Part shown: positions 312-59,559 of the stretch, one piece after another
How the letters are laid out: every line of letters begins with the position of its first letter
Numbering within the stretch: the first letter of the stretch is position 1
NCBI GenBank assembly: GCA_020723005.1
Contig: DYJS01000001.1
Coordinates: 25,951 to 89,950, forward strand
Direction of reading: 5' to 3'
Source of the DNA: Candidatus Methylomirabilis sp.
GTDB lineage: Bacteria > Patescibacteriota > DYJS01
Length of the DNA: 64,000 bases
Position numbers and translations under genes: made by a program
The notes under the pieces: model-generated
The model's input: the letters and a program-made list of their open reading frames with translations, nothing else
Told to the model about the DNA's origin: nothing
Databases searched by the model: none

Positions 312-620
312 ATGTTTAATATAAAGAAAGTTTTTTCAGCAACAAAACCACCAGCAGTTAATCTAAATAAAAATGGTGATTTTAATTGGACAAATATCTG
401 GACAGAGCTTCCTGATATGATTTCAGTTGTTTTGACGGTAGTTGGTGTTTTAGTTGTGATTTATTTGATTATGGGTGGTTTTAGATATATTACTGCTGGA
501 GGAGACGAAAAGAAAGTTGAGGTAGCGAAGAAAACAATTACAAATGCTATTATAGGTTTGATTGTTATTTTATTGGCATTTGCAATTATGCAAGGTGTAA
601 ATTCGTTAATTCAAGGTTAA
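312..620 (+). CDS. VirB2/TrbC-like pilin-family small membrane protein (paralog 2 of 3)
   Basis: Shares VLVVIYLIxGGFxYITAGGDEKKVEVAKK...IIGLIVILLAF with its neighbours. It has two TM helices and is a small tandem paralog. Confidence 0.55.
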   Translation: MFNIKKVFSATKPPAVNLNKNGDFNWTNIWTELPDMISVVLTVVGVLVVIYLIMGGFRYITAGGDEKKVEVAKKTITNAIIGLIVILLAFAIMQGVNSLIQG

Positions 621-624
621 TTGA

Positions 625-1200
625 ATGATAAAATTATTTGCAAAGCAGGTAAATGACAATAGTTTTGGATTAGGTAGTGTATTTTCTATTAAAGATATAT
701 GGCAATCTATTCCAGATTTCATATCAACAGCTATAATGTTGGCTGGAGTTTTGGTTGTAATATATTTGATAATTGCAGGTTTTCAATATTTATCATCTGG
801 AGGAGATGAGAAAAAAGTTGAGATTGCAAAGAAAAATATAAATTTCAGCATAACTGGACTTGTAATAGTTTTATTTTCATATGCACTTGTTAATGGATTG
901 ATGAGCTTACTTGGAACAAGACCTATGGACAATGGAGATGATACAATTTTTGAATTAAAGGTTTCGGTTGATAACTGTCCACCACAAACAGATATTATAA
1001 GATTTTCTTTTTCTGGTGGGTCTGGAACAAAGTATAGTCAATGTATTTTCTCTTCTAGTAAAGGATCAACAGGTTGGAAAGATTGTCTAGGTGGTTCTTT
1101 TGACACAGAGGGATTAATTGCAGATGATGGAACAGATGAATTTTATATTAAAGCATCTGATTCAGCAGGTCAAACTGCTCTTGATAGTTGTGTTTGGTAA
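625..1200 (+). CDS. VirB2/TrbC-like pilin-family protein with a Cys-containing C-terminal extension (paralog 3 of 3)
   Basis: Same N-terminal two-helix core (VLVVIYLIIAGFQYLSSGGDEKKVEIAKK), followed by about 100 extra residues with 4 Cys (DNCPPQ...C...C...C). Confidence 0.55.
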   Translation: MIKLFAKQVNDNSFGLGSVFSIKDIWQSIPDFISTAIMLAGVLVVIYLIIAGFQYLSSGGDEKKVEIAKKNINFSITGLVIVLFSYALVNGLMSLLGTRPMDNGDDTIFELKVSVDNCPPQTDIIRFSFSGGSGTKYSQCIFSSSKGSTGWKDCLGGSFDTEGLIADDGTDEFYIKASDSAGQTALDSCVW

Positions 1201-17941: not shown

Positions 17942-18607
17942 TTAAATTCCAAAAACAAAAAATCTAAAAGGAATACTAACAATATCTACAAACCAACCGA
18001 TTGGGTTTAAAACTCCATTTGTTGCATATGAAACAAAAATTAAAATTAATAATAAAGAAGAACCTTTTTTTTCAAGCTCCCACCAAAAATTATATAATTT
18101 ATTCATAGTTAAAGATTCCAAAATTTTTGATCCATCAAGTGGTGGAATTGGCAGAAGATTGAAAGATGCAAGAGAGATATTAATTAAAGCAAGGTAGTAG
18201 GAAATTTGCATTGCAAGGTAATATGGACTTGAAAAAGATTCAGTCTGAAAAAAATCTTTTGCAAATCGAAAAGGAAACCAAAAAATTGTTGCTAAAAAAA
18301 GATTTGCCAAAGGACCAGCCAAAGAAACAAGAAAGATTCCTGTTTTGACAGAAACTTTTGAAAATCTTGCCGGGTTTATTGGAACAGGTTTTGCAAAACC
18401 AAAACCAGCAATTAGAAAGAAAATTGCTCCAAAAAGATCAAGATGAGCAAAGGGATTTATTGTTAGTCTTCCAGAAATTTTTGCCGTGTCATCTCCAATT
18501 GCATTTGCCACAAATCCGTGAGCAAATTCGTGAAAAGATATTGAAAATAAGAAAATTGAAGCAAAAATTATAAATTGATCGATGTTTGTGAAAAAAAGAT
18601 TTAACAT
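17942..18607 (-). CDS. Site-2 protease family (peptidase M50) intramembrane metalloprotease
   Basis: HEFAHGFVA (HExxH) sits inside a TM helix. There are multiple TM segments and the LDG motif (PPLDGSKI). Confidence 0.8.
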   Translation of the reverse strand: MLNLFFTNIDQFIIFASIFLFSISFHEFAHGFVANAIGDDTAKISGRLTINPFAHLDLFGAIFFLIAGFGFAKPVPINPARFSKVSVKTGIFLVSLAGPLANLFLATIFWFPFRFAKDFFQTESFSSPYYLAMQISYYLALINISLASFNLLPIPPLDGSKILESLTMNKLYNFWWELEKKGSSLLLILIFVSYATNGVLNPIGWFVDIVSIPFRFFVFGI

Positions 18608-18864: not shown

Positions 18865-18892
18865 TTGACTTATTTATTAATAAATATATGAT
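18865..18892 (+). promoter_or_regulatory. Sigma70-like promoter for the large surface protein gene
   Basis: TTGACT (18865-18870), a 16-nt spacer, then TATGAT (18887-18892). It lies about 27 nt upstream of the ATG at 18919. Confidence 0.4.
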
Positions 18893-18918: not shown

Positions 18919-21900
18919 ATGAATTTTAAACAAAAAATTTTTTCATTTTTCGCAAGTATGTTGATTTTTTCATCCTCTGCTAAAGCAGAAGATATGGATG
19001 TAAATATCAATGTTAGTGATACAACAACTATATATTCTTCTGTTACAACACCTGTTGATAATTCAGTTGTTTCGTCAGTTCCATTTTTTTCCGGAACTGC
19101 AGGTGCAACATCAACAACTGTTGCAAAAGTTGATCTTTCTTTAAGAGATAATCAAACTGGTTGGTTTTGGGATCCTTCAACAAATTCTTGGAATATTTCA
19201 GAAGTTTGGTTTGTTGCAGAAGGAACAAATTCTTGGAATTTTTCTGGGAATATGCCAACTTGGACAGAGGGAAGAAATTATTCTGTTCGTTCTAGAGCAA
19301 CAGGTGCAAATAGTATCGTTGAAACTCCTGGAGCTGGCAATGATTTTACATATAGAACTACAAATGCTTTAAGAATTTCTCCAGAATATGTTCAATTACA
19401 AAAAGGAACACAATTTACATTTTCTGCATATAATGGGGTTGGAAATTATGTTTGGACAACAAATTCAAATTTTGGCAGAATTGTTCCAGTTGGAACAGGA
19501 TCGGAAGCAGTGTTTGTTGCAGATGAAGTTACAACAAATTCGTATACAACAGTAACTGTTCAAAGTGGAACAGAAAGTGCAACAGCAATTGTTGTCATCA
19601 CAGAAAATTTAGGAAGATTATTGGATTTAATACCAGATTTTTCTACAATTGAAAAAAACTCATCAGTTGAACTTTTAGCTCTTGGAGGATTGAATTCTAT
19701 GAGTTATAATTGGGAAGTTAAAGATGAAAATGGTCAAAATGTTTCTGGATTTCTTCCAAGTTTAACAACGGAAGAAAATACAAATGTTTTTACAGGTCTT
19801 TCAACTGGTGTTTATAGTGTAAAAGTTGTAAATAATGGAGTTTCTGATACATCTTATATTCTTGTTATTGAGCAGGGCTCAAATCTTTTGGAAGTTGATC
19901 CACCACATACAAATCTAGACGAAAATGAAACTTCAAATATAAGTGTTTTAGGTTCTGTTGGAGATGTGAATTGGAGAATTTTAGATACAGAAATTGCAGA
20001 TATAAATGGTTCATCAACAGGAACAACAATAGAAGTTGAGGGTGATGAATATGGATATACACAAGCAGTTGTTTCTGATTCTCTTGGAAATTATGGAGTT
20101 GGTCATATCTCTGTTAATAATTCTGGTTCATCAACACTTTTTTACATTGATCCTAGTACAGCAGTTATTCCTGTTGGATCTGCAGTAAATTTAAGTGTTT
20201 ATGGAGGAGATGGAAGTGTTAGCTGGAGAATGAGTAATCAAACAGTTGGAACAACAAATATTATAGGTGATAGAAGAGCAATTTTTACAGGAGTCTCTGA
20301 AGGTGCAGTTGATGTAACTGTTCAAGATAGTAGTGGAAATGAAGTTGTTTCAAAAATTTTAGTTGTAAAAATTCCACCAATTACTTGCGAAGCAGGTTCT
20401 ACTGAAGTTGAATGTCAGTTTTCTGATACAGAATTATATCTTCTTCCAAATTTTTCTGTTTTACCAATTGGAGGAACTCAAAATTTTACAGCCTACAATG
20501 TTCAAGGAAGTGCAACTTGGGAGTTATCATCAACAGAATTTGGTTCGATTAACCAAACAACAGGAGATCAGGTTACTTTTTCTGCAACACAAATTGGAGA
20601 GCTTGATCTTTCGGTCAGAGATACTGGTGGTAGAGCATCAACAGCAAGAATTATGATTTTTGACCCCCTTGATCCACCACCTTCAAATAGAGAATTTTCA
20701 GTTATTCCAGGTTTTTCTGTTTTATATCCAGGTCAGGTTGTTATAATGGGAATTGCAGGAAGTCAAGAAATTATAAATGAGGGTGTTACTTGGAGCTCTT
20801 TAAATGAATCTGTTGCAATAATAGATCCAACAACAGGAGTTTTAACTGCAGGAGTAATACCAGGAACAACGACAATTATTGCAAGAACTCCTTCTGGAGA
20901 AGAAGCATATGCAACTGTTATTGTTTCAAATCCAAACGATTCGCTTGATGTAAATCCGAAATTTTTAGAATTAGACATAGAAGAAACTGCACAACTTTTT
21001 GTTTCTGGTGGAAGTGGTCCAATTCAATACACATCAACGAATTCAAGCATAGCATCAGTTGATTCAAACGGTGTTGTTCGTGGTGTTTCTGTTGGAAATG
21101 CAACAATTATTGTAACAAGATCTGGAAAGGTTGGTTTTTCAAATATAACAGTTGTTGATCCAAATTCACAAAGCTTTTATTTAACACCATCTTTTTCAGA
21201 AGTTCCAGTTGGATATTCTCAAATTATAGTTCCAAAAAATTTTTCTGGATCGGCAGACAATATAGTTTGGACAAGCTCTGATCCAGCAAATTTTGAAATT
21301 ATAAAATTAACCCCTGAAGATCCAAATTATCAAGTAGGAGCAGTTAAAGTAAATGTTCGTTCTGCAACATATGCAACAATAAAAGCTCAAGACGAATCTG
21401 GAAAAGAGGCAACTGCAACAGTTAGTGGTATTGAAGAAAATCTTGCAGATCTTGTAAATAATCCTTCCTCTGTTTCTTTTTCAAAAGTTGGTGAATGTAT
21501 TACAATTCAAGTTTTAAATAAATCTGCTAATGCGACAGGTTATACTTTTGAATCATCAAATCCAACATATGTTCAGGTTGATGAGAATGGAAGAATTTGT
21601 GCAGTAAATCTTCCAATTTCTGGAACTGCTCAAGTTATAATCACAACAACAGAAGAAGGAACAGGAAGAACAGCAGAAACAGTAGTTACTTTAATTGGGA
21701 CATCAACAAATGATACAGATGGTGACGGAATGCCAGATTGGTGGGAAGATCAATATCCTTGTATGGATAAAAATACATCAGATTGGGACAGAGATTATGA
21801 TAATGACGGATGGAATAATATGGAAGAATATCTTGCAGGAACAAATCCTTGTGATGCTGGTTCAATTCCAACAGATACAGATGGTGACGGAATGCCAGAT

Positions 21901-22218
21901 TGGTGGGAAATTGAAAATGGTTTAGATCCAAATGATCCATCAGACAGAGACGAAGATCCAGATAATGATGGATTAACAAACTTTGAAGAATATCATGATG
22001 TTATTAAAAAATATGGTGGAACAGCAGATCCATTTGATCCTGACACAGATAATGATGGATTTTCAGATGGTGATGAAATGAAAAAATTTGGAACAAATCC
22101 ACTTGTCCCAAATGGCAAAAAAACAAATCCAAATACTGGAACAAGCTCAATAATTATTCTTTTAAGCACATTGATTGCAATCAAGTTTTCAAAAAGCTTA
22201 AAATTTAAAAAACAATAA
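18919..22218 (+). CDS. Large cell-surface protein with multiple Big_2 (bacterial Ig-like) domains, TSP3-like Ca-binding repeats and a C-terminal anchor
   Basis: Has a signal peptide. It carries at least 6 Big_2-like repeats, for example VSGGSGPIQYTSTNSSIASVDSNGVVRGVSVGNATIIVT. The repeat TDTDGDGMPDWWE occurs twice with identical DNA. The C-terminus is NPNTGTSS + TM + KSLKFKKQ. Confidence 0.75.
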   Translation: MNFKQKIFSFFASMLIFSSSAKAEDMDVNINVSDTTTIYSSVTTPVDNSVVSSVPFFSGTAGATSTTVAKVDLSLRDNQTGWFWDPSTNSWNISEVWFVAEGTNSWNFSGNMPTWTEGRNYSVRSRATGANSIVETPGAGNDFTYRTTNALRISPEYVQLQKGTQFTFSAYNGVGNYVWTTNSNFGRIVPVGTGSEAVFVADEVTTNSYTTVTVQSGTESATAIVVITENLGRLLDLIPDFSTIEKNSSVELLALGGLNSMSYNWEVKDENGQNVSGFLPSLTTEENTNVFTGLSTGVYSVKVVNNGVSDTSYILVIEQGSNLLEVDPPHTNLDENETSNISVLGSVGDVNWRILDTEIADINGSSTGTTIEVEGDEYGYTQAVVSDSLGNYGVGHISVNNSGSSTLFYIDPSTAVIPVGSAVNLSVYGGDGSVSWRMSNQTVGTTNIIGDRRAIFTGVSEGAVDVTVQDSSGNEVVSKILVVKIPPITCEAGSTEVECQFSDTELYLLPNFSVLPIGGTQNFTAYNVQGSATWELSSTEFGSINQTTGDQVTFSATQIGELDLSVRDTGGRASTARIMIFDPLDPPPSNREFSVIPGFSVLYPGQVVIMGIAGSQEIINEGVTWSSLNESVAIIDPTTGVLTAGVIPGTTTIIARTPSGEEAYATVIVSNPNDSLDVNPKFLELDIEETAQLFVSGGSGPIQYTSTNSSIASVDSNGVVRGVSVGNATIIVTRSGKVGFSNITVVDPNSQSFYLTPSFSEVPVGYSQIIVPKNFSGSADNIVWTSSDPANFEIIKLTPEDPNYQVGAVKVNVRSATYATIKAQDESGKEATATVSGIEENLADLVNNPSSVSFSKVGECITIQVLNKSANATGYTFESSNPTYVQVDENGRICAVNLPISGTAQVIITTTEEGTGRTAETVVTLIGTSTNDTDGDGMPDWWEDQYPCMDKNTSDWDRDYDNDGWNNMEEYLAGTNPCDAGSIPTDTDGDGMPDWWEIENGLDPNDPSDRDEDPDNDGLTNFEEYHDVIKKYGGTADPFDPDTDNDGFSDGDEMKKFGTNPLVPNGKKTNPNTGTSSIIILLSTLIAIKFSKSLKFKKQ

Positions 22219-24678: not shown

Positions 24679-25146
24679 ATGAAAAAATTATTTTTTTTAA
24701 TGGCTTTTTCTTTAGTGTCTTCACTTTCTGTTGTTTCATTTGCACAAACATCAACTCCAACAAGTGGTGTTTCTATTGAATCAATAGATGGAAGAACAAT
24801 AACATCGGACTCTCCTGTTGAAACAACATCAGGATTTCCAAGATTTTGTGGAACATCAAACTACCCAGCTTCATCAGTTCAGGTTAGAGTTGATGGTGTT
24901 GTAGTTGGAAATGTTACGACAGACTCTTCTGGAAATTGGTGTTATACACTTGTTAATGAAGTTTCGGAAGGTTCTCACACATTTTCAGTAACAGTTGTTT
25001 CTGCAGCAGTCACAGATCAAGTTTCTTTTTCAAGAGTAGATAAATTAACAGATACAGGTTCAGAAATAATGATCGCTTTGGCAATATCTTTTGCAATATT
25101 TCTAACATCTGTTGGTGGATATTACTACTTTAAAAGAGTAAAATAA
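24679..25146 (+). CDS. Exported protein with a C-terminal TM anchor and basic tail
   Basis: Signal peptide MKKLFFLMAFSLVSSLSVVSFA. The C-terminus reads ...KLTDTGSEIMIALAISFAIFLTSVGGYYYFKRVK. Confidence 0.5.
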   Translation: MKKLFFLMAFSLVSSLSVVSFAQTSTPTSGVSIESIDGRTITSDSPVETTSGFPRFCGTSNYPASSVQVRVDGVVVGNVTTDSSGNWCYTLVNEVSEGSHTFSVTVVSAAVTDQVSFSRVDKLTDTGSEIMIALAISFAIFLTSVGGYYYFKRVK

Positions 25147-48974: not shown

Positions 48975-49538
48975 ATGAATGCAAATTTTTTGGAAAAAGA
49001 AGTTCTGAAAAAAGCAAAAGATGGAGATGATTCAGCTTTTGAAATTATTATTCGAGAGTTTGAAAGAAAAATTGTTCGTTTTGCATATGGAATGGTTGGA
49101 AATTCTTTTGATGCAGAAGATTTGGCACAAGAGATTTTTGTAAAAGTGTATTTTGGAATCAAAAATTTTGATTTTTCTAAACCTTTTGAACCATGGCTAT
49201 ATGCAATTGCCAGAAATCATATCAGAAGTTTTTTATCATCAAAAAGGGGTGTTTTTGTTTCACTAGAAAAAATTTTGGGAACATTAGAAGAGAAAGCAAT
49301 AGAATCTGAAGATGATATTGAAAAAGTTGATCCTGAATTGAGGATTGCGATGGAGAAATTAAAAACAATTGATAGAGAGATAATTTCTCTCAAATATATC
49401 TCTGAATTGAAGCTTGAAGAGATTGCAGAAAGATTGAAATTGCCTCTTTCAACGGTTAAAACAAAACTTCGGAGAGGATTGAAAAAGCTGGAAAATGATC
49501 TAAATTTGGAAAAATTAAATTTAAGTTTTTTAGAATGA
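48975..49538 (+). CDS. ECF-type RNA polymerase sigma factor (sigma-70 regions 2 and 4)
   Basis: Region 2 (FEIIIREFERKIVRFAYGMVGNSFDAEDLAQEIFVKVY...PWLYAIARNHIRS) and region 4 HTH (EIAERLKLPLSTVKTKLRRG). Confidence 0.8.
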   Translation: MNANFLEKEVLKKAKDGDDSAFEIIIREFERKIVRFAYGMVGNSFDAEDLAQEIFVKVYFGIKNFDFSKPFEPWLYAIARNHIRSFLSSKRGVFVSLEKILGTLEEKAIESEDDIEKVDPELRIAMEKLKTIDREIISLKYISELKLEEIAERLKLPLSTVKTKLRRGLKKLENDLNLEKLNLSFLE

Positions 49539-49885
49539 ACATTGAGGAAAGATTAAAAAATTTGTCTCAACAAAAAAAAGATTCTCAAAACTTTATTTTG
49601 AATGTTTTTGAAAAAATTTACGAGGAGAAAAGAAGAAGAGAATTTTTGAAACCTTTTAAAATTTTAGCTACTTTTTCAGTAATTTTTTCACTTCTTCTTG
49701 GTTTTTTTTATAGTGTAATAAATTTTTCTGGTTCAACAAGTTTTGAGACACTCGTATATTCTTTGAATAATCAAATTTTTAATTCAGGAATTGTAGGTTC
49801 GTTGTTTGATGGAATTTTATTTTTTTCATTTTTATTAGTGCCAATTTTTTCATTTCCATTTTTAAAATTAAAAAATGCAAGATAG
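49535..49885 (+). CDS. Putative membrane anti-sigma factor
   Basis: The start overlaps the sigma stop (ATGA). It has a cytoplasmic N-terminus, then a single TM. This is the typical genetic position of an anti-sigma factor. Confidence 0.45.
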   Translation: MNIEERLKNLSQQKKDSQNFILNVFEKIYEEKRRREFLKPFKILATFSVIFSLLLGFFYSVINFSGSTSFETLVYSLNNQIFNSGIVGSLFDGILFFSFLLVPIFSFPFLKLKNAR

Positions 49886-50315
49886 TAAAAAATTATATTG
49901 GATTTTTGGAATTCTTCTCAGCATAAATTTTTTATTGGCTGGATTTTTCATTGGATCTTTTTATGAAAAATCAGTTGAAAATGAAAAAATTCAAAAATTA
50001 GAAGAGGAGAATAATTCGCTTGTAAAATTTGCAGGGAAAGAATTTTTGGATTCAGAAAGTTGGAGAAATTTACCAAATCCGCGAGAAAACTTTGCAAATA
50101 ATTTTTTGTCTGAAAGGGGTTTGGTTGGAAAAATTTTGCAAAAAAAAGATCTTTTTGGAGTTTTAAAAACAAAAGCAGGTTTAGTTAGAATCTCTTTTAA
50201 AGATAAGGATTTATTAGAAAATTTTGAGATTGGAGATAAAGTTATAGTTTTTGGGGAATTAAAAAATGAAAATTTCGGAAAAGTGATCATAGTTAACAAA
50301 ATTGAAAAGGTTTAA
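49875..50315 (+). CDS. Membrane-anchored hypothetical protein, third gene of the sigma/anti-sigma module
   Basis: An 11-nt overlap joins it to the previous gene. N-terminal TM, then a soluble domain ending ...DKVIVFGELKNENFGKVIIVNKIEKV. Confidence 0.4.
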   Translation: MQDSKKLYWIFGILLSINFLLAGFFIGSFYEKSVENEKIQKLEEENNSLVKFAGKEFLDSESWRNLPNPRENFANNFLSERGLVGKILQKKDLFGVLKTKAGLVRISFKDKDLLENFEIGDKVIVFGELKNENFGKVIIVNKIEKV

Positions 50316-56109: not shown

Positions 56110-57246
56110 TTGCTAGATTTAAAAATTTTGATAGTTTATTTTTGTAAAATAAAATTTTTGAAAAAATTTATTAAATTATTTGCAGTTTTGTTTTTTTTTG
56201 CATTTCCAAATTTTTTAAAAAGTGAATCTCCAACAGGAATTGTTGTTTCGCCTCTCAAAATAAATTTTTCTGATGAGTTTGGAAATTTAAAAACTGGCTC
56301 TTCCTATCAATCAAAATTTGAAGTTCAAAATACAACAGATGAAGATTTAAAAATAGTTATCGTTTCTTCAGATGGAAAGATTGGCGATGCAAGAGAAAGT
56401 TGGATAAAAATTTTAGAAGAAGATCAAAATTTTACGCTTGGTTCAAAAGAAAACTCAAATTTTCAAAACTCAAAAGTTATTAATTTTGTTCTTGAAATTC
56501 CAAAAGATGCAAAAGAGTCTGCAAATGAGCTTTTAATTGTTGCAAAAACAGATTCAAAAGATTCTGGATCAATAAATTTCTCTTTTGGGGTTGGAGTAAA
56601 AATAAAATTTAATGTTTCTGATACTAAAAAAATTATATCTGATGTTTCTGAAATAAAAATTTTATCCGAAGAAAATGGAAAAAATTATGAAGTTTCTAAA
56701 AATTTAAAATTTAATTTAGGTGAAATTGATTTTTTAAAATTTAAGAGGAAAAAAGATGTAAAATTTTTAGTTTTTGGAACTTTGCAAAATAACTCAAAAC
56801 TTTTTTCATATCCAGATATAAAACTTGATTCTAGTTCAAAGGATGATTATTTTTTGTTTTCTCCAGAAGAAGAAACAAAGGAATTTGTTGAAAAAATTTC
56901 ACAAGGAAGGAGCGAAGAAGAGGTTTTTAAAATTATCTCTGAAAAATCTCAAATTAGACTTTCTGCTCCAAATCTTTTTTATTCTCCAAATTTGAATCCA
57001 CAAGAAAAGTTTTTTCTTGATCCAAAAGAGATTTACATTAAAGATTTTTCAATTTTTAAAACATACAAAATTAAGATTTTAATTTATGAAAATGGAGAAT
57101 TTGTTGGGGAAAAGGTTTTTGAAGTTAGTGAAAATCTTTGGGTAAAAATTTTGGCTATCGGATTTTTTATCTTTTTTGTAATTTTGGTAGTTTCGATTTT
57201 TTTCATAATTTTTTTCAAAATAAAGAAACGAAATGAAGAAAAATAG
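56110..57246 (+). CDS. Exported/envelope hypothetical protein with a C-terminal TM anchor
   Basis: N-terminal hydrophobic segment and a C-terminal TM plus KIKKRNEEK tail. A 14-nt overlap joins it to the downstream M23 peptidase gene. Confidence 0.45.
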   Translation: MLDLKILIVYFCKIKFLKKFIKLFAVLFFFAFPNFLKSESPTGIVVSPLKINFSDEFGNLKTGSSYQSKFEVQNTTDEDLKIVIVSSDGKIGDARESWIKILEEDQNFTLGSKENSNFQNSKVINFVLEIPKDAKESANELLIVAKTDSKDSGSINFSFGVGVKIKFNVSDTKKIISDVSEIKILSEENGKNYEVSKNLKFNLGEIDFLKFKRKKDVKFLVFGTLQNNSKLFSYPDIKLDSSSKDDYFLFSPEEETKEFVEKISQGRSEEEVFKIISEKSQIRLSAPNLFYSPNLNPQEKFFLDPKEIYIKDFSIFKTYKIKILIYENGEFVGEKVFEVSENLWVKILAIGFFIFFVILVVSIFFIIFFKIKKRNEEK

Positions 57247-58432
57247 TATAAAAAAATACCTTTTTTCTTTTCTTTTTTCCTTTTCTTTTTTCCCGAATCA
57301 GAAAATATTTTCAGAAAATAAAGAAGATTCTGAAATTGAAGATAGGAAAAAAAGACTTGAAGAGATTCAGGTTCAAATTCAAGCTATTGAAGAAGATATT
57401 TTAAAGATTTCTCAAAATAAATCTTCTGTTCAAGATGAAATTTCAATACTTGAAAAATCTATTTCAAAAACAAATTTAGATATCTCTGCAATAGAAGATA
57501 GTATTGTTTTGAAAAATTTGGAAATTTCTGATTTGCAAAAAGAGATTGATGTAAAAAATTTGGAAATTGATTCAAAAAAAGGATTTTTGAATGAAGTTGC
57601 ATATGAATTTTTAAAAATTTCAAAACCAACAACTCTTGATATTTTGCTTGGTGAAAAAAGTTTATCTGATTATTTGCGATCTAGCCAAAATTTGAAAATT
57701 TTGCAAGAAAAACTTGTTTTGATGCTTGATGCTCTTCGTTCAGAAAGAGAAGATTTGAAAAGTAAGCAGAGAAATTTGAAAATCGAGATTGATAATTTAA
57801 ACAATTTGACAGAACAACAAAAAGAGCTTCTTTTTACACTTGAGCAACAAAATTCTTCAAAGAAAATGATTCTTCAAGATCTTGCAGGCAGTGAATCTGA
57901 ATATCAAAAATTGTTAGCTGAATCTAGAATTGATTACGAAAATTTGAGAGTTGAAATTTTACAACTTGAAGAATCTAGGCTCTCTAAAAATGAAACAGAA
58001 AATTCTGGAACAAGAGATATTGATATTTCAATTTCTTGGCCTTGTGATAGTAGAAAGATTACAGCATATTTTTTAGATGAAGATTATAAAAAATATTTTG
58101 GTGTAAATCATTATGCAATAGATATCTCTCTTACACAAGGAAGTCCTGTTTATGCAGTTGCTGATGGAAAGGTTTCTAAAGTTCGTGATGCTGGAATGGG
58201 GTATAATTATTTGATGATTCAATATGACGATCAAGTTTCATCTGTTTATGGTCATGTTTCAAAGTTTAAAGTTTCTGAAGGAGAGAAAGTAACAAAGGGT
58301 CAGGTTGTTGCACTTTCTGGTGGAGCACCTGGAACACCTGGAGCTGGGAGAATGACAACTGGAGCTCATTTACATTTTGAATTGATTGTTGATGGAAAAC
58401 ATGTAAACCCACTTGTTTATTTACCAACTTGA
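57233..58432 (+). CDS. Peptidase M23 (LytM/EnvC-like) with an N-terminal coiled coil
   Basis: A long coiled-coil segment. The catalytic site appears intact: HYAIDIS...GSPVYAVADG...GHVSKF...GAHLHFEL. Confidence 0.8.
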   Translation: MKKNSIKKYLFSFLFSFSFFPNQKIFSENKEDSEIEDRKKRLEEIQVQIQAIEEDILKISQNKSSVQDEISILEKSISKTNLDISAIEDSIVLKNLEISDLQKEIDVKNLEIDSKKGFLNEVAYEFLKISKPTTLDILLGEKSLSDYLRSSQNLKILQEKLVLMLDALRSEREDLKSKQRNLKIEIDNLNNLTEQQKELLFTLEQQNSSKKMILQDLAGSESEYQKLLAESRIDYENLRVEILQLEESRLSKNETENSGTRDIDISISWPCDSRKITAYFLDEDYKKYFGVNHYAIDISLTQGSPVYAVADGKVSKVRDAGMGYNYLMIQYDDQVSSVYGHVSKFKVSEGEKVTKGQVVALSGGAPGTPGAGRMTTGAHLHFELIVDGKHVNPLVYLPT

Positions 58433-59559
58433 TGAAAATTTTTAGAAAAAAATTTTTGTATTTAGTTTTTATATTTTTCTTTTTATCTTCTTTTTTTGAT
58501 TTAAATGAAAAAAAAGTTTCTGGAATAAAAGTTTTTTTCAAAGATAGTTTTTATAATTGTGAATATAATTTTTCTGAAAAAAAATTTATTACTTGTGAAA
58601 ATTTTAATTCTTCGGAATATAAATTTGATGCAGAAAAAAATATAGTTCGGAATTTTATCTCTCTTGAGATTGATTTTGATGAAGATGTTTTTTTAGTTGA
58701 TACTTGGAGTGGAACAATTTCAGAAATTTTAATTTCTTTAGGCTTTAGAAATTTAGATCTTATTAAAATAGAACCAAATTTAAATGAATTTATTTTTGAA
58801 AATAAAAAAATTCAAATCAATTCTTTAAATGAAGTTTTTTTGAATGGAGAAAAAAAAATAGTTTCTTCAAAAACTATTAAAGAGTCTTTAAAAGAGATAG
58901 GTTTTTCAGAAGATGAGATTTTAAAATTTTCAACATATCCAGAAAAAAATTCAAAAATTTTTAACGGAATGAAGATTTTTATGTATCAGTCATCCTCAAA
59001 CGAAATTATTGAAGAAGAGATTTTAAAGTTCGAGGAGAAAATAATTTATGATTCAACGATTTCTGAAGGGGTTCAAAAGATTTTATCTGAAGGGCAGAAT
59101 GGATTAAAAGTTAAAAAATATAAAATTAGCGAAGAGAATGGGGAAGTTATTTCAAAAGATCTTATTTCAGAAAAGATTGAAATTGAAAAGATTGATAGAA
59201 AAATTTTAATTGGAACAAAAAAAAAGGAAAGTAAGGAGGATAGTAAATTTTACATAGGAAAAGCAACTTGGTATGGTTGGAAAGGTCCAGATGGAACTTG
59301 GGAGTATCAAGATTATAATAAAAATCTTCCAAGTAGCGATTGGTATGGATTTGGATGTGCAAGTAGAGATTATCCAAAAGGGACAAAGCTTCTTGTAACA
59401 AATCTTGCAAATTCAAAAAGTATGATTTGTATGGTGAATGATTATGGTCCAGAAATAAATGAAAATGATCCTAGGATTATAGATTTATCACAAACAGGGT
59501 TTTCTCAAATAGCAAATTATAGATTAGGAAAAATAAATGTTCGTGTGGAAGAAGCATAA
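58429..59559 (+). CDS. G5-domain / RlpA-like double-psi beta-barrel (lytic transglycosylase-like) protein
   Basis: The C-terminus GKATWYGWKGPDG...GTKLLVTNLANSKSMICMVNDYGPEINENDPRIIDLSQTGFSQIA fits the RlpA DPBB fold. An upstream G5-like segment is present. A 4-nt overlap joins it to the M23 gene. Confidence 0.65.
   Translation: MMKIFRKKFLYLVFIFFFLSSFFDLNEKKVSGIKVFFKDSFYNCEYNFSEKKFITCENFNSSEYKFDAEKNIVRNFISLEIDFDEDVFLVDTWSGTISEILISLGFRNLDLIKIEPNLNEFIFENKKIQINSLNEVFLNGEKKIVSSKTIKESLKEIGFSEDEILKFSTYPEKNSKIFNGMKIFMYQSSSNEIIEEEILKFEEKIIYDSTISEGVQKILSEGQNGLKVKKYKISEENGEVISKDLISEKIEIEKIDRKILIGTKKKESKEDSKFYIGKATWYGWKGPDGTWEYQDYNKNLPSSDWYGFGCASRDYPKGTKLLVTNLANSKSMICMVNDYGPEINENDPRIIDLSQTGFSQIANYRLGKINVRVEEA

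Follow-up and report, generated by a model that had tools for sequence, protein, structure and literature searches.

A candidate sortase-type sorting signal at the C-terminus of a large Ig-like and TSP3-repeat surface protein of a Patescibacteria bacterium

Results

A large surface-protein gene and its host lineage

We analysed a stretch of 64,000 nucleotides (hereafter the window) of contig DYJS01000001.1 (assembly GCA_020723005.1, positions 25,951 to 89,950), in which a gene for a large surface protein ends in the pentapeptide NPNTG followed by a short stretch of hydrophobic residues and then a basic tail, a layout that may represent a sortase-type cell-wall sorting signal. The open reading frame (ORF) at 18919-22218 (+) encodes the protein of 1099 amino acids (aa) described in the initial annotation of this DNA, the stop codon lying within these coordinates. 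An identical protein is called in NCBI assembly GCA_973415815.1 (contig CCXGSS010000015.1, 117,951 bp), in the GEM catalogue and in JGI 3300000227 (contig TB_AS07_7DRAFT_10000015). When 5.8 billion proteins were searched with the full-length sequence, the only matches besides the protein itself were at the level of domains, and no orthologues were found. The window has a G+C content of 27%, and at third codon positions the G+C content (GC3) of the surface-protein gene is 0.11, as compared to 0.15 for topA. As its GC3 is as low as that of housekeeping genes or below it, we consider the gene to be native, and a recent horizontal transfer was rejected on the same ground. The combination of an orphan gene and native codons is more in keeping with a surface protein that evolves fast than with a recent import. 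The features of the gene and of related neighbours are collected in Table 1.

The precomputed Pfam annotation of the called genes was surveyed over the window itself and about 10 kb on each side of it (about 84 kb, the surveyed region). The TopA protein of the window is 48-56% identical to proteins of Candidatus Pacebacteria, the Patescibacteria group, Magasanikbacteria, Buchananbacteria and Falkowbacteria, its best named relatives; a comparison of the surroundings of topA with those of two relatives gave no synteny. Among the GTDB representatives scanned, the best match to AspRS is 45% identical, so that they include neither this genome nor a close relative of it. Genes of peptidoglycan metabolism are found around the locus (FtsW/RodA, MurJ, a Mur ligase, an M23 peptidase and Amidase_2), as are genes for T4SS_pilin proteins. 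From the TopA relatives, the T4SS_pilin genes and the peptidoglycan genes together, it follows that the host is a deep-branching bacterium of the candidate phyla radiation (CPR) with a cell wall.

Table 1. Features of the surface-protein gene and of other exported proteins with a C-terminal anchor (positions in the window unless stated otherwise).
Feature	Position	Strand	Basis or remark
Promoter-like site TTGACT-16-TATGAT	18865..18892	+	27 nt 5' of start codon; consensus scan, pattern match only
Sec-type signal peptide MNFKQKIFSFFASMLIFSSSAKA, aa 1-23	18919..18987	+	Read by eye; predicted cleavage after AKA, before ED
N-terminal domain, aa 24-145	18988..19353	+	Family-less; candidate distal ligand-binding domain, by position only
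Stalk of about 9 Ig-like modules, aa 147-925	19357..21693	+	Pfam, self-built profile, DNA repeats
TSP3-type calcium-binding-type region, aa 932-1054	21712..22080	+	Pfam, regular expression, relatives
Exact 36-nt repeat, copy 1, DTDGDGMPDWWE, aa 932-943	21712..21747	+	Repeat scan
Exact 36-nt repeat, copy 2, DTDGDGMPDWWE, aa 986-997	21874..21909	+	Repeat scan
NPNTG, candidate sortase motif, aa 1070-1074	22126..22140	+	Sequence and motif class; putative cleavage T1073/G1074
Hydrophobic segment TSSIIILLSTLIAIKF, aa 1075-1090, core of 11 residues	22141..22188	+	Hydropathy scan
Basic tail SKSLKFKKQ, aa 1091-1099, 4 Lys plus K1089	22189..22215	+	Sequence
Exported Ig-like Big_13 protein, 155 aa, tail KLTDTG-SE-IMIALAISFAIFLTSVGGYYYF-KRVK	24679..25146	+	Second xTG candidate
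Family-less protein, 378 aa, no xTG motif	56110..57246	+	Signal peptide, beta-rich body, long C-terminal transmembrane segment and basic tail
Family-less protein, 351 aa, no xTG motif	L004 17956-19011, about 8-9 kb right of window		Signal peptide, beta-rich body, long C-terminal transmembrane segment and basic tail

The C-terminal tail

The protein ends in the order KKT-NPNTG-TSS-IIILLSTLIAIKF-SKSLKFKKQ-stop, exactly as initially described, with a hydrophobic core of IIILLSTLIAI that is followed by KF. The pentapeptide stands 25 residues from the C-terminus, inside the last ~50 residues in which LPXTG or an accepted variant (such as NPxTG, LAxTG, LPxTA or NPQTN) is expected, and 3 residues ahead of the hydrophobic segment, and this is the only ORF of the window with such an arrangement. 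The layout of a sorting signal (pentapeptide, hydrophobic segment, basic tail) is thus present through the NPxTG variant and not through the canonical LPXTG. NPxTG is recognised by class B sortases, as exemplified by NPKTG in IsdC of Bacillus anthracis (PMC11987632); the initial annotation had likewise placed it close to the sortase-B class. A survey of fibrillar adhesins likewise names NPxTG among the alternative motifs for anchoring in Gram-positives, and Big_2 among stalk domains.

The context of the motif, rich in Asn, Pro, Thr and Gly, does not make it likely, because in relatives with TSP3 repeats the pattern.P.TG is rare (5 occurrences in 28,739 residues, 1.7e-4 per residue) and NP.TG does not occur. 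In the last few positions ahead of a C-terminal hydrophobic segment, such a motif would be expected by chance at about 1e-3 per protein.

Export signal, N-terminal domain and Ig-like stalk

The N-terminus MNFKQKIFSFFASMLIFSSSAKA has a basic n-region, then a hydrophobic core, and closes with AKA (an AXA site), which by eye is the shape of a Sec substrate of signal peptidase I and agrees with the signal peptide annotated initially. In the domain that follows it, no Pfam match was found at E<0.01, nor does it resemble the Big_13 protein nearby to a significant degree; a single-sequence AlphaFold2 model was unusable (predicted local distance difference test, pLDDT, of 34).

The stalk consists of Ig-like modules of about 84 aa each, and the DNA repeats within it are spaced by 252-261 nt. 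Across the whole protein, Pfam recognises Big_2 (PF02368) in 3 stretches (E 1e-15, 57.9 bits against a cut-off of 22.8). Taken segment by segment, aa 396-485, 580-662 and 660-745 match at E<1e-3 (25.3, 22.3 and 38.2 bits, respectively), and aa 830-925 match weakly (E 0.028). With a profile that starts from aa 660-745 and is iterated over this one protein, about 9 related Ig-like modules are delineated over aa 147-891, a number to be read with the self-reinforcement of such a profile beyond its first pass; the first, non-circular pass gave weak matches to six further segments. For this reason the count of at least six Big_2 domains given in the initial annotation is reasonable for Ig-like modules, but as Pfam Big_2 domains it reduces to the 3 stretches and the weak one. 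All six cysteines of the protein fall into three close pairs (aa 490/499, 860/894 and 948/978), which suggests extracellular disulfides; DsbA-like/VKOR systems have been reported in CPR genomes (PMC6744442).

The TSP3 region and its exact repeat

Between stalk and tail, Pfam identifies TSP3_bac (PF18884) in 4 stretches (E 5.5e-18, 64.9 bits against a cut-off of 25), and a regular-expression scan locates five DxDxDG-x5-[DE] motifs (aa 932, 959, 986, 1013 and 1042), in keeping with the predicted calcium-binding-type repeats of the initial annotation. The region is laid out as two 54-aa double units and one more repeat. With the C-terminal 179 aa as query, 606 generic TSP3 proteins were retrieved, of which 120 relatives were listed; the best of those listed (P0158) is 42% identical across 78% of the query, and no xPxTG tail was found among the relatives listed. 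The Amuc_1099 pilus-like family (NF042425) was considered and rejected, since its score is 33.3 bits against a cut-off of 50 and the match covers only model positions 126-155, inside the TSP3 region.

The two double units carry the sole exact repeat of at least 30 nt in the window, a pair of 36-nt copies that lie 162 nt apart (54 codons, in frame). The exact DNA duplication reported initially therefore stands, with its peptide corrected to the 12 aa of DTDGDGMPDWWE: copy 1 is preceded by N and copy 2 by T, and TDTDGDGMPDWWE is thus present once only. As hundreds of unrelated TSP3 proteins contain a module of which DTDGDGMPDWWE is the consensus, a strong constraint on its amino acids is to be expected. 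Given identical amino acids, the probability of the same 12 codons by codon bias is P = 0.0057. Codon bias is insufficient to account for the identity since the rare codons GGT and GAC are used in both copies, and the low probability implies that the identity reflects common descent or a short conversion tract. The repeat thus marks a fairly recent in-frame duplication of 54 aa, or a short conversion tract, in the TSP3 spacer. Between the double units (21706-22029, +), 24 residues are identical, 21 of these 24 with the same codon, and the other 30 of the 54 differ. The ratio of amino-acid changes to silent changes is unusually high for a duplication, which may stem from selection, either diversifying or relaxed, outside the calcium-binding cores, or from a conversion mosaic. 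In principle, the repeat could gain or lose one unit. The initial description of the repeat as recombination-prone is borne out insofar as a real in-frame 36-nt repeat exists, but no copy-number variant of it was seen, two assemblies encoding an identical protein.

Other exported proteins with a C-terminal anchor

In four proteins of the surveyed region, a signal peptide is combined with a C-terminal hydrophobic segment that runs out into a short basic tail. When the exported proteins were compared for a shared xTG motif, as the initial annotation had proposed, one further candidate emerged, the LTDTG tail of the 155-aa Big_13 protein 2.5 kb downstream, but two of the four are without a motif. 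The hydrophobic segment of the 155-aa protein has 22 residues, and those of the motif-less 378-aa and 351-aa proteins, which are possibly paralogues, have 20-26. Between two assemblies the 155-aa protein shows one P/S difference (NYPASS vs NYSASS). A HMMER search with it listed 150 matches, mostly giant multi-repeat Big_13 proteins, short orthologues not being visible there; among the matches listed, the tails of Big_13 relatives from other phyla are of the LPxTG, LAxTG or MYXO-CTERM type. A metagenome scan with this protein returned nothing relevant. On TIGR01167, a single exchange of T for P raises the LTDTG tail to 23.2 bits (cut-off 15.9).

Neighbouring genes

The intergenic spacer 5' of the surface-protein gene is AT-rich, 311 bp long and contains the promoter-like site; at the other side, the stop codon lies 1 base away from the end of a convergent gene for iron-sulphur (FeS) assembly. 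Three T4SS_pilin (PF18895) genes stand in tandem directly 3' of the Amidase_2 gene, at 312-620 (+), at 625-1200 (+) and, just left of the window, at L006 9338-9649; this trio is a possible pilin cluster of CPR type. After the gene of the 378-aa protein come overlapping ones that encode an M23 peptidase and a G5+DPBB (RlpA-like) protein (57233-59559), an arrangement suggestive of a wall-remodelling cluster. At 48975-50315 (+), a gene for a sigma factor of the extracytoplasmic function (ECF) type (187 aa) precedes two small overlapping ORFs (116 and 146 aa), and the first of these, with a hydrophobic segment at its end, is a possible anti-sigma factor.

Discussion

How the protein may be anchored

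It is highly probable that the protein is located at the cell surface and tethered there by its C-terminus. The adhesin-like interpretation of the initial annotation is, to this extent, well supported: an exported, C-terminally tethered surface protein of a CPR-type organism. As to the nature of the tether, we favour a cell-wall sorting signal of the sortase type, because the motif is rare and exactly positioned, the hydrophobic core is short and sortases are common in the CPR; judged from motif, position and lineage background, the chances that the tail is such a signal are about even. A sortase family is present in more than half of the CPR genomes and is near-ubiquitous in Microgenomates (PMC6744442). 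Kantor et al. reported sortases in SR1, WWE3 and TM7, with predicted LPXTG substrates in WWE3 and TM7 (PMC3812714). The protein would be exported through Sec with a cleavable N-terminal signal peptide, after which a sortase in the membrane would cleave the T1073-G1074 bond and join the threonine to peptidoglycan, so that the protein would end up bound covalently to the wall. The five TSP3 repeats, stiffened by calcium, would serve as a wall-proximal spacer ahead of the anchor, and the roughly nine Ig-like modules may project the N-terminal domain to the far end, where it might bind a ligand, be it a host cell, a partner or a substrate.

Several observations weigh against a sortase signal. As the initial annotation had stated for the window, we found no sortase gene, and this extends to the roughly 84 kb surveyed of the 117,951-bp contig: the Pfam matches there include neither a sortase nor the exosortase, rhomboid and archaeosortase families, no TLxTC-like motif occurs in any ORF of at least 100 aa, a Pfam scan of ten unannotated ORFs gave no sortase, and tblastn with Staphylococcus aureus SrtA (an approximate query sequence) gave noise only. 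Neither the tail nor the whole protein matches the sorting-signal models TIGR01167, the NCBIfam SrtB signals or Pfam Gram_pos_anchor (PF00746) at E<=10, and even when Asn is replaced by Leu in silico (LPNTG), the tail reaches 12.1 bits on TIGR01167, below the cut-off of 15.9. Of the sorting signal proposed initially, the layout, the NPxTG class, the CPR background and the further xTG candidate 2.5 kb downstream speak for it, and the absence of a sortase from the surveyed region, the unmatched curated models and the two motif-less anchored proteins against it. No orthologues with a conserved NPNTG were found; a metagenome scan with the 63-aa tail returned nothing relevant, the one match that appeared to cover the tail (L016) sitting inside a giant TSP3 protein. 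The two candidate motifs, NPNTG and LTDTG, agree only in [ND]-T-G-[ST], and one specific sortase would not normally accept both. The near-match of the LTDTG tail to TIGR01167 (14.9 bits) was dropped as evidence, since the motif-less tail of the 351-aa protein scores 14.6 bits and the score is therefore unspecific. The hydrophobic core, with only 11 residues, can also be listed here. These points lend weight to a plain type I membrane anchor, a less probable but serious alternative, in which the hydrophobic segment would be a stop-transfer helix, the Lys-rich end would be cytoplasmic by the positive-inside rule, the protein would stay unprocessed and NPNTG would be a chance occurrence in a linker rich in Asn, Pro, Thr and Gly that continues the 'GTNP' context of the TSP3 repeats. 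Plain membrane anchoring is in use here, because the 378-aa and 351-aa proteins end in a transmembrane segment with a basic tail and no motif. Some TSP3 proteins of other lineages, one of them named as that of a Heimdallarchaeon, have a plain tail of this kind as well; moreover, sortases are patchy in the CPR outside Microgenomates (PMC6744442). What a plain anchor leaves to coincidence is a motif within 3 residues of the hydrophobic segment, at about 1 in 1000 per protein. It also has to accommodate a core that is short for a stable, permanent membrane helix, as compared to the 20-26 residues of the motif-less anchors nearby, and that fits a retention signal better.

The resemblance between the NPNTG and LTDTG tails, which share [ND]TG[ST] 2-3 residues ahead of the hydrophobic segment, could alternatively point to an undescribed, CPR-specific sorting or processing system that reads the looser [ND]-T-G-[ST], be it a divergent sortase with relaxed P4 and P3 or another protease or transpeptidase. 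There would be room for it, in that no paper defining the recognition motif of CPR sortases was found in the literature searched, and the published CPR predictions had scanned for LPXTG only (PMC3812714). We nevertheless regard it as improbable, the two examples having been found after the fact, '..[ND]TG[ST]' arising by chance at 1.4e-4 per residue and no candidate enzyme being found by Pfam in the surveyed region. That Patescibacteria sortases recognise the relaxed [ND]-T-G-[ST], with NPNTG and LTDTG as substrates of one enzyme, is likewise doubtful. Still far less probable is a shedding of the protein through a cut in its tail by an intramembrane protease, for which the M50 site-2 protease encoded at 17942-18607 (-) could be proposed. 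Adjacency of this Peptidase_M50 gene is all that speaks for it, against which the two genes are divergent across the 311-bp spacer and no other link was found. Site-2 proteases cleave segments of type II (N-in) orientation, in most cases once a site-1 cut has been made. As the tail is of type I orientation and no functional link was found, the M50 neighbour was rejected as processing enzyme. To explanations beyond a sortase signal, a plain membrane anchor and an undescribed CPR signal we leave a very small probability.

Significance for CPR surface proteins

A life attached to other microbes is assumed for CPR/Patescibacteria, and few of the proteins by which they attach are known. The surface protein described here is a concrete candidate for attachment, being large, native, lineage-specific and displayed at the surface. 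If NPNTG is a sortase signal, CPR surface proteomes deserve to be scanned for motifs other than LPXTG, and if the relaxed [ND]-T-G-[ST] were read, a start could be made on an inventory of the surface proteins that CPR episymbionts anchor in their walls. With a plain membrane anchor, the protein would be an ordinary orphan surface protein.

Comparison with known systems

Substrates of class B sortases, such as IsdC with its NPKTG, share with the present protein Asn at P4, Pro at P3, Thr-Gly at P1/P1', the hydrophobic segment, the basic tail and the signal peptide. Unlike these Isd substrates, it has no NEAT or heme-uptake domain and no srtB adjacent to its gene. In addition, SrtB of B. anthracis needs acidic residues at P5 and P2' (D-NPKTG-D; PMC11987632), whereas T is found at both positions here, the host belongs to the Patescibacteria and is not a Firmicute, and the tail leaves the SrtB-signal models of NCBIfam unmatched. 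LPXTG proteins (TIGR01167/PF00746, including the LAxTG class E) show the same three-part signal on a multi-Ig exported protein; here, in contrast, P4 is Asn and not Leu, the hidden Markov models are unmatched and the hydrophobic core is unusually short.

With the TSP3 (PF18884) surface proteins, the protein has in common the composite unit DTDGDGMPDWWE...DxDxDGLTNxEEY and the same 54-aa double unit, but a transmembrane segment with a basic tail is present in 4 of the 120 listed relatives, and in 0 of them is it preceded by xPxTG. The fibrillar adhesin-like proteins (Monzon et al.) differ by their known adhesive domains, none of which was found by Pfam in aa 24-145; they resemble the present protein in their tandem Ig stalk, C-terminal anchor and non-repeat N-terminal domain. 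The class to which it belongs, with an Ig stalk, a TSP3 spacer and a C-terminal anchor, is already well known, and by its architecture it is a surface protein resembling fibrillar adhesins, encoded by a bacterium of the Patescibacteria (CPR).

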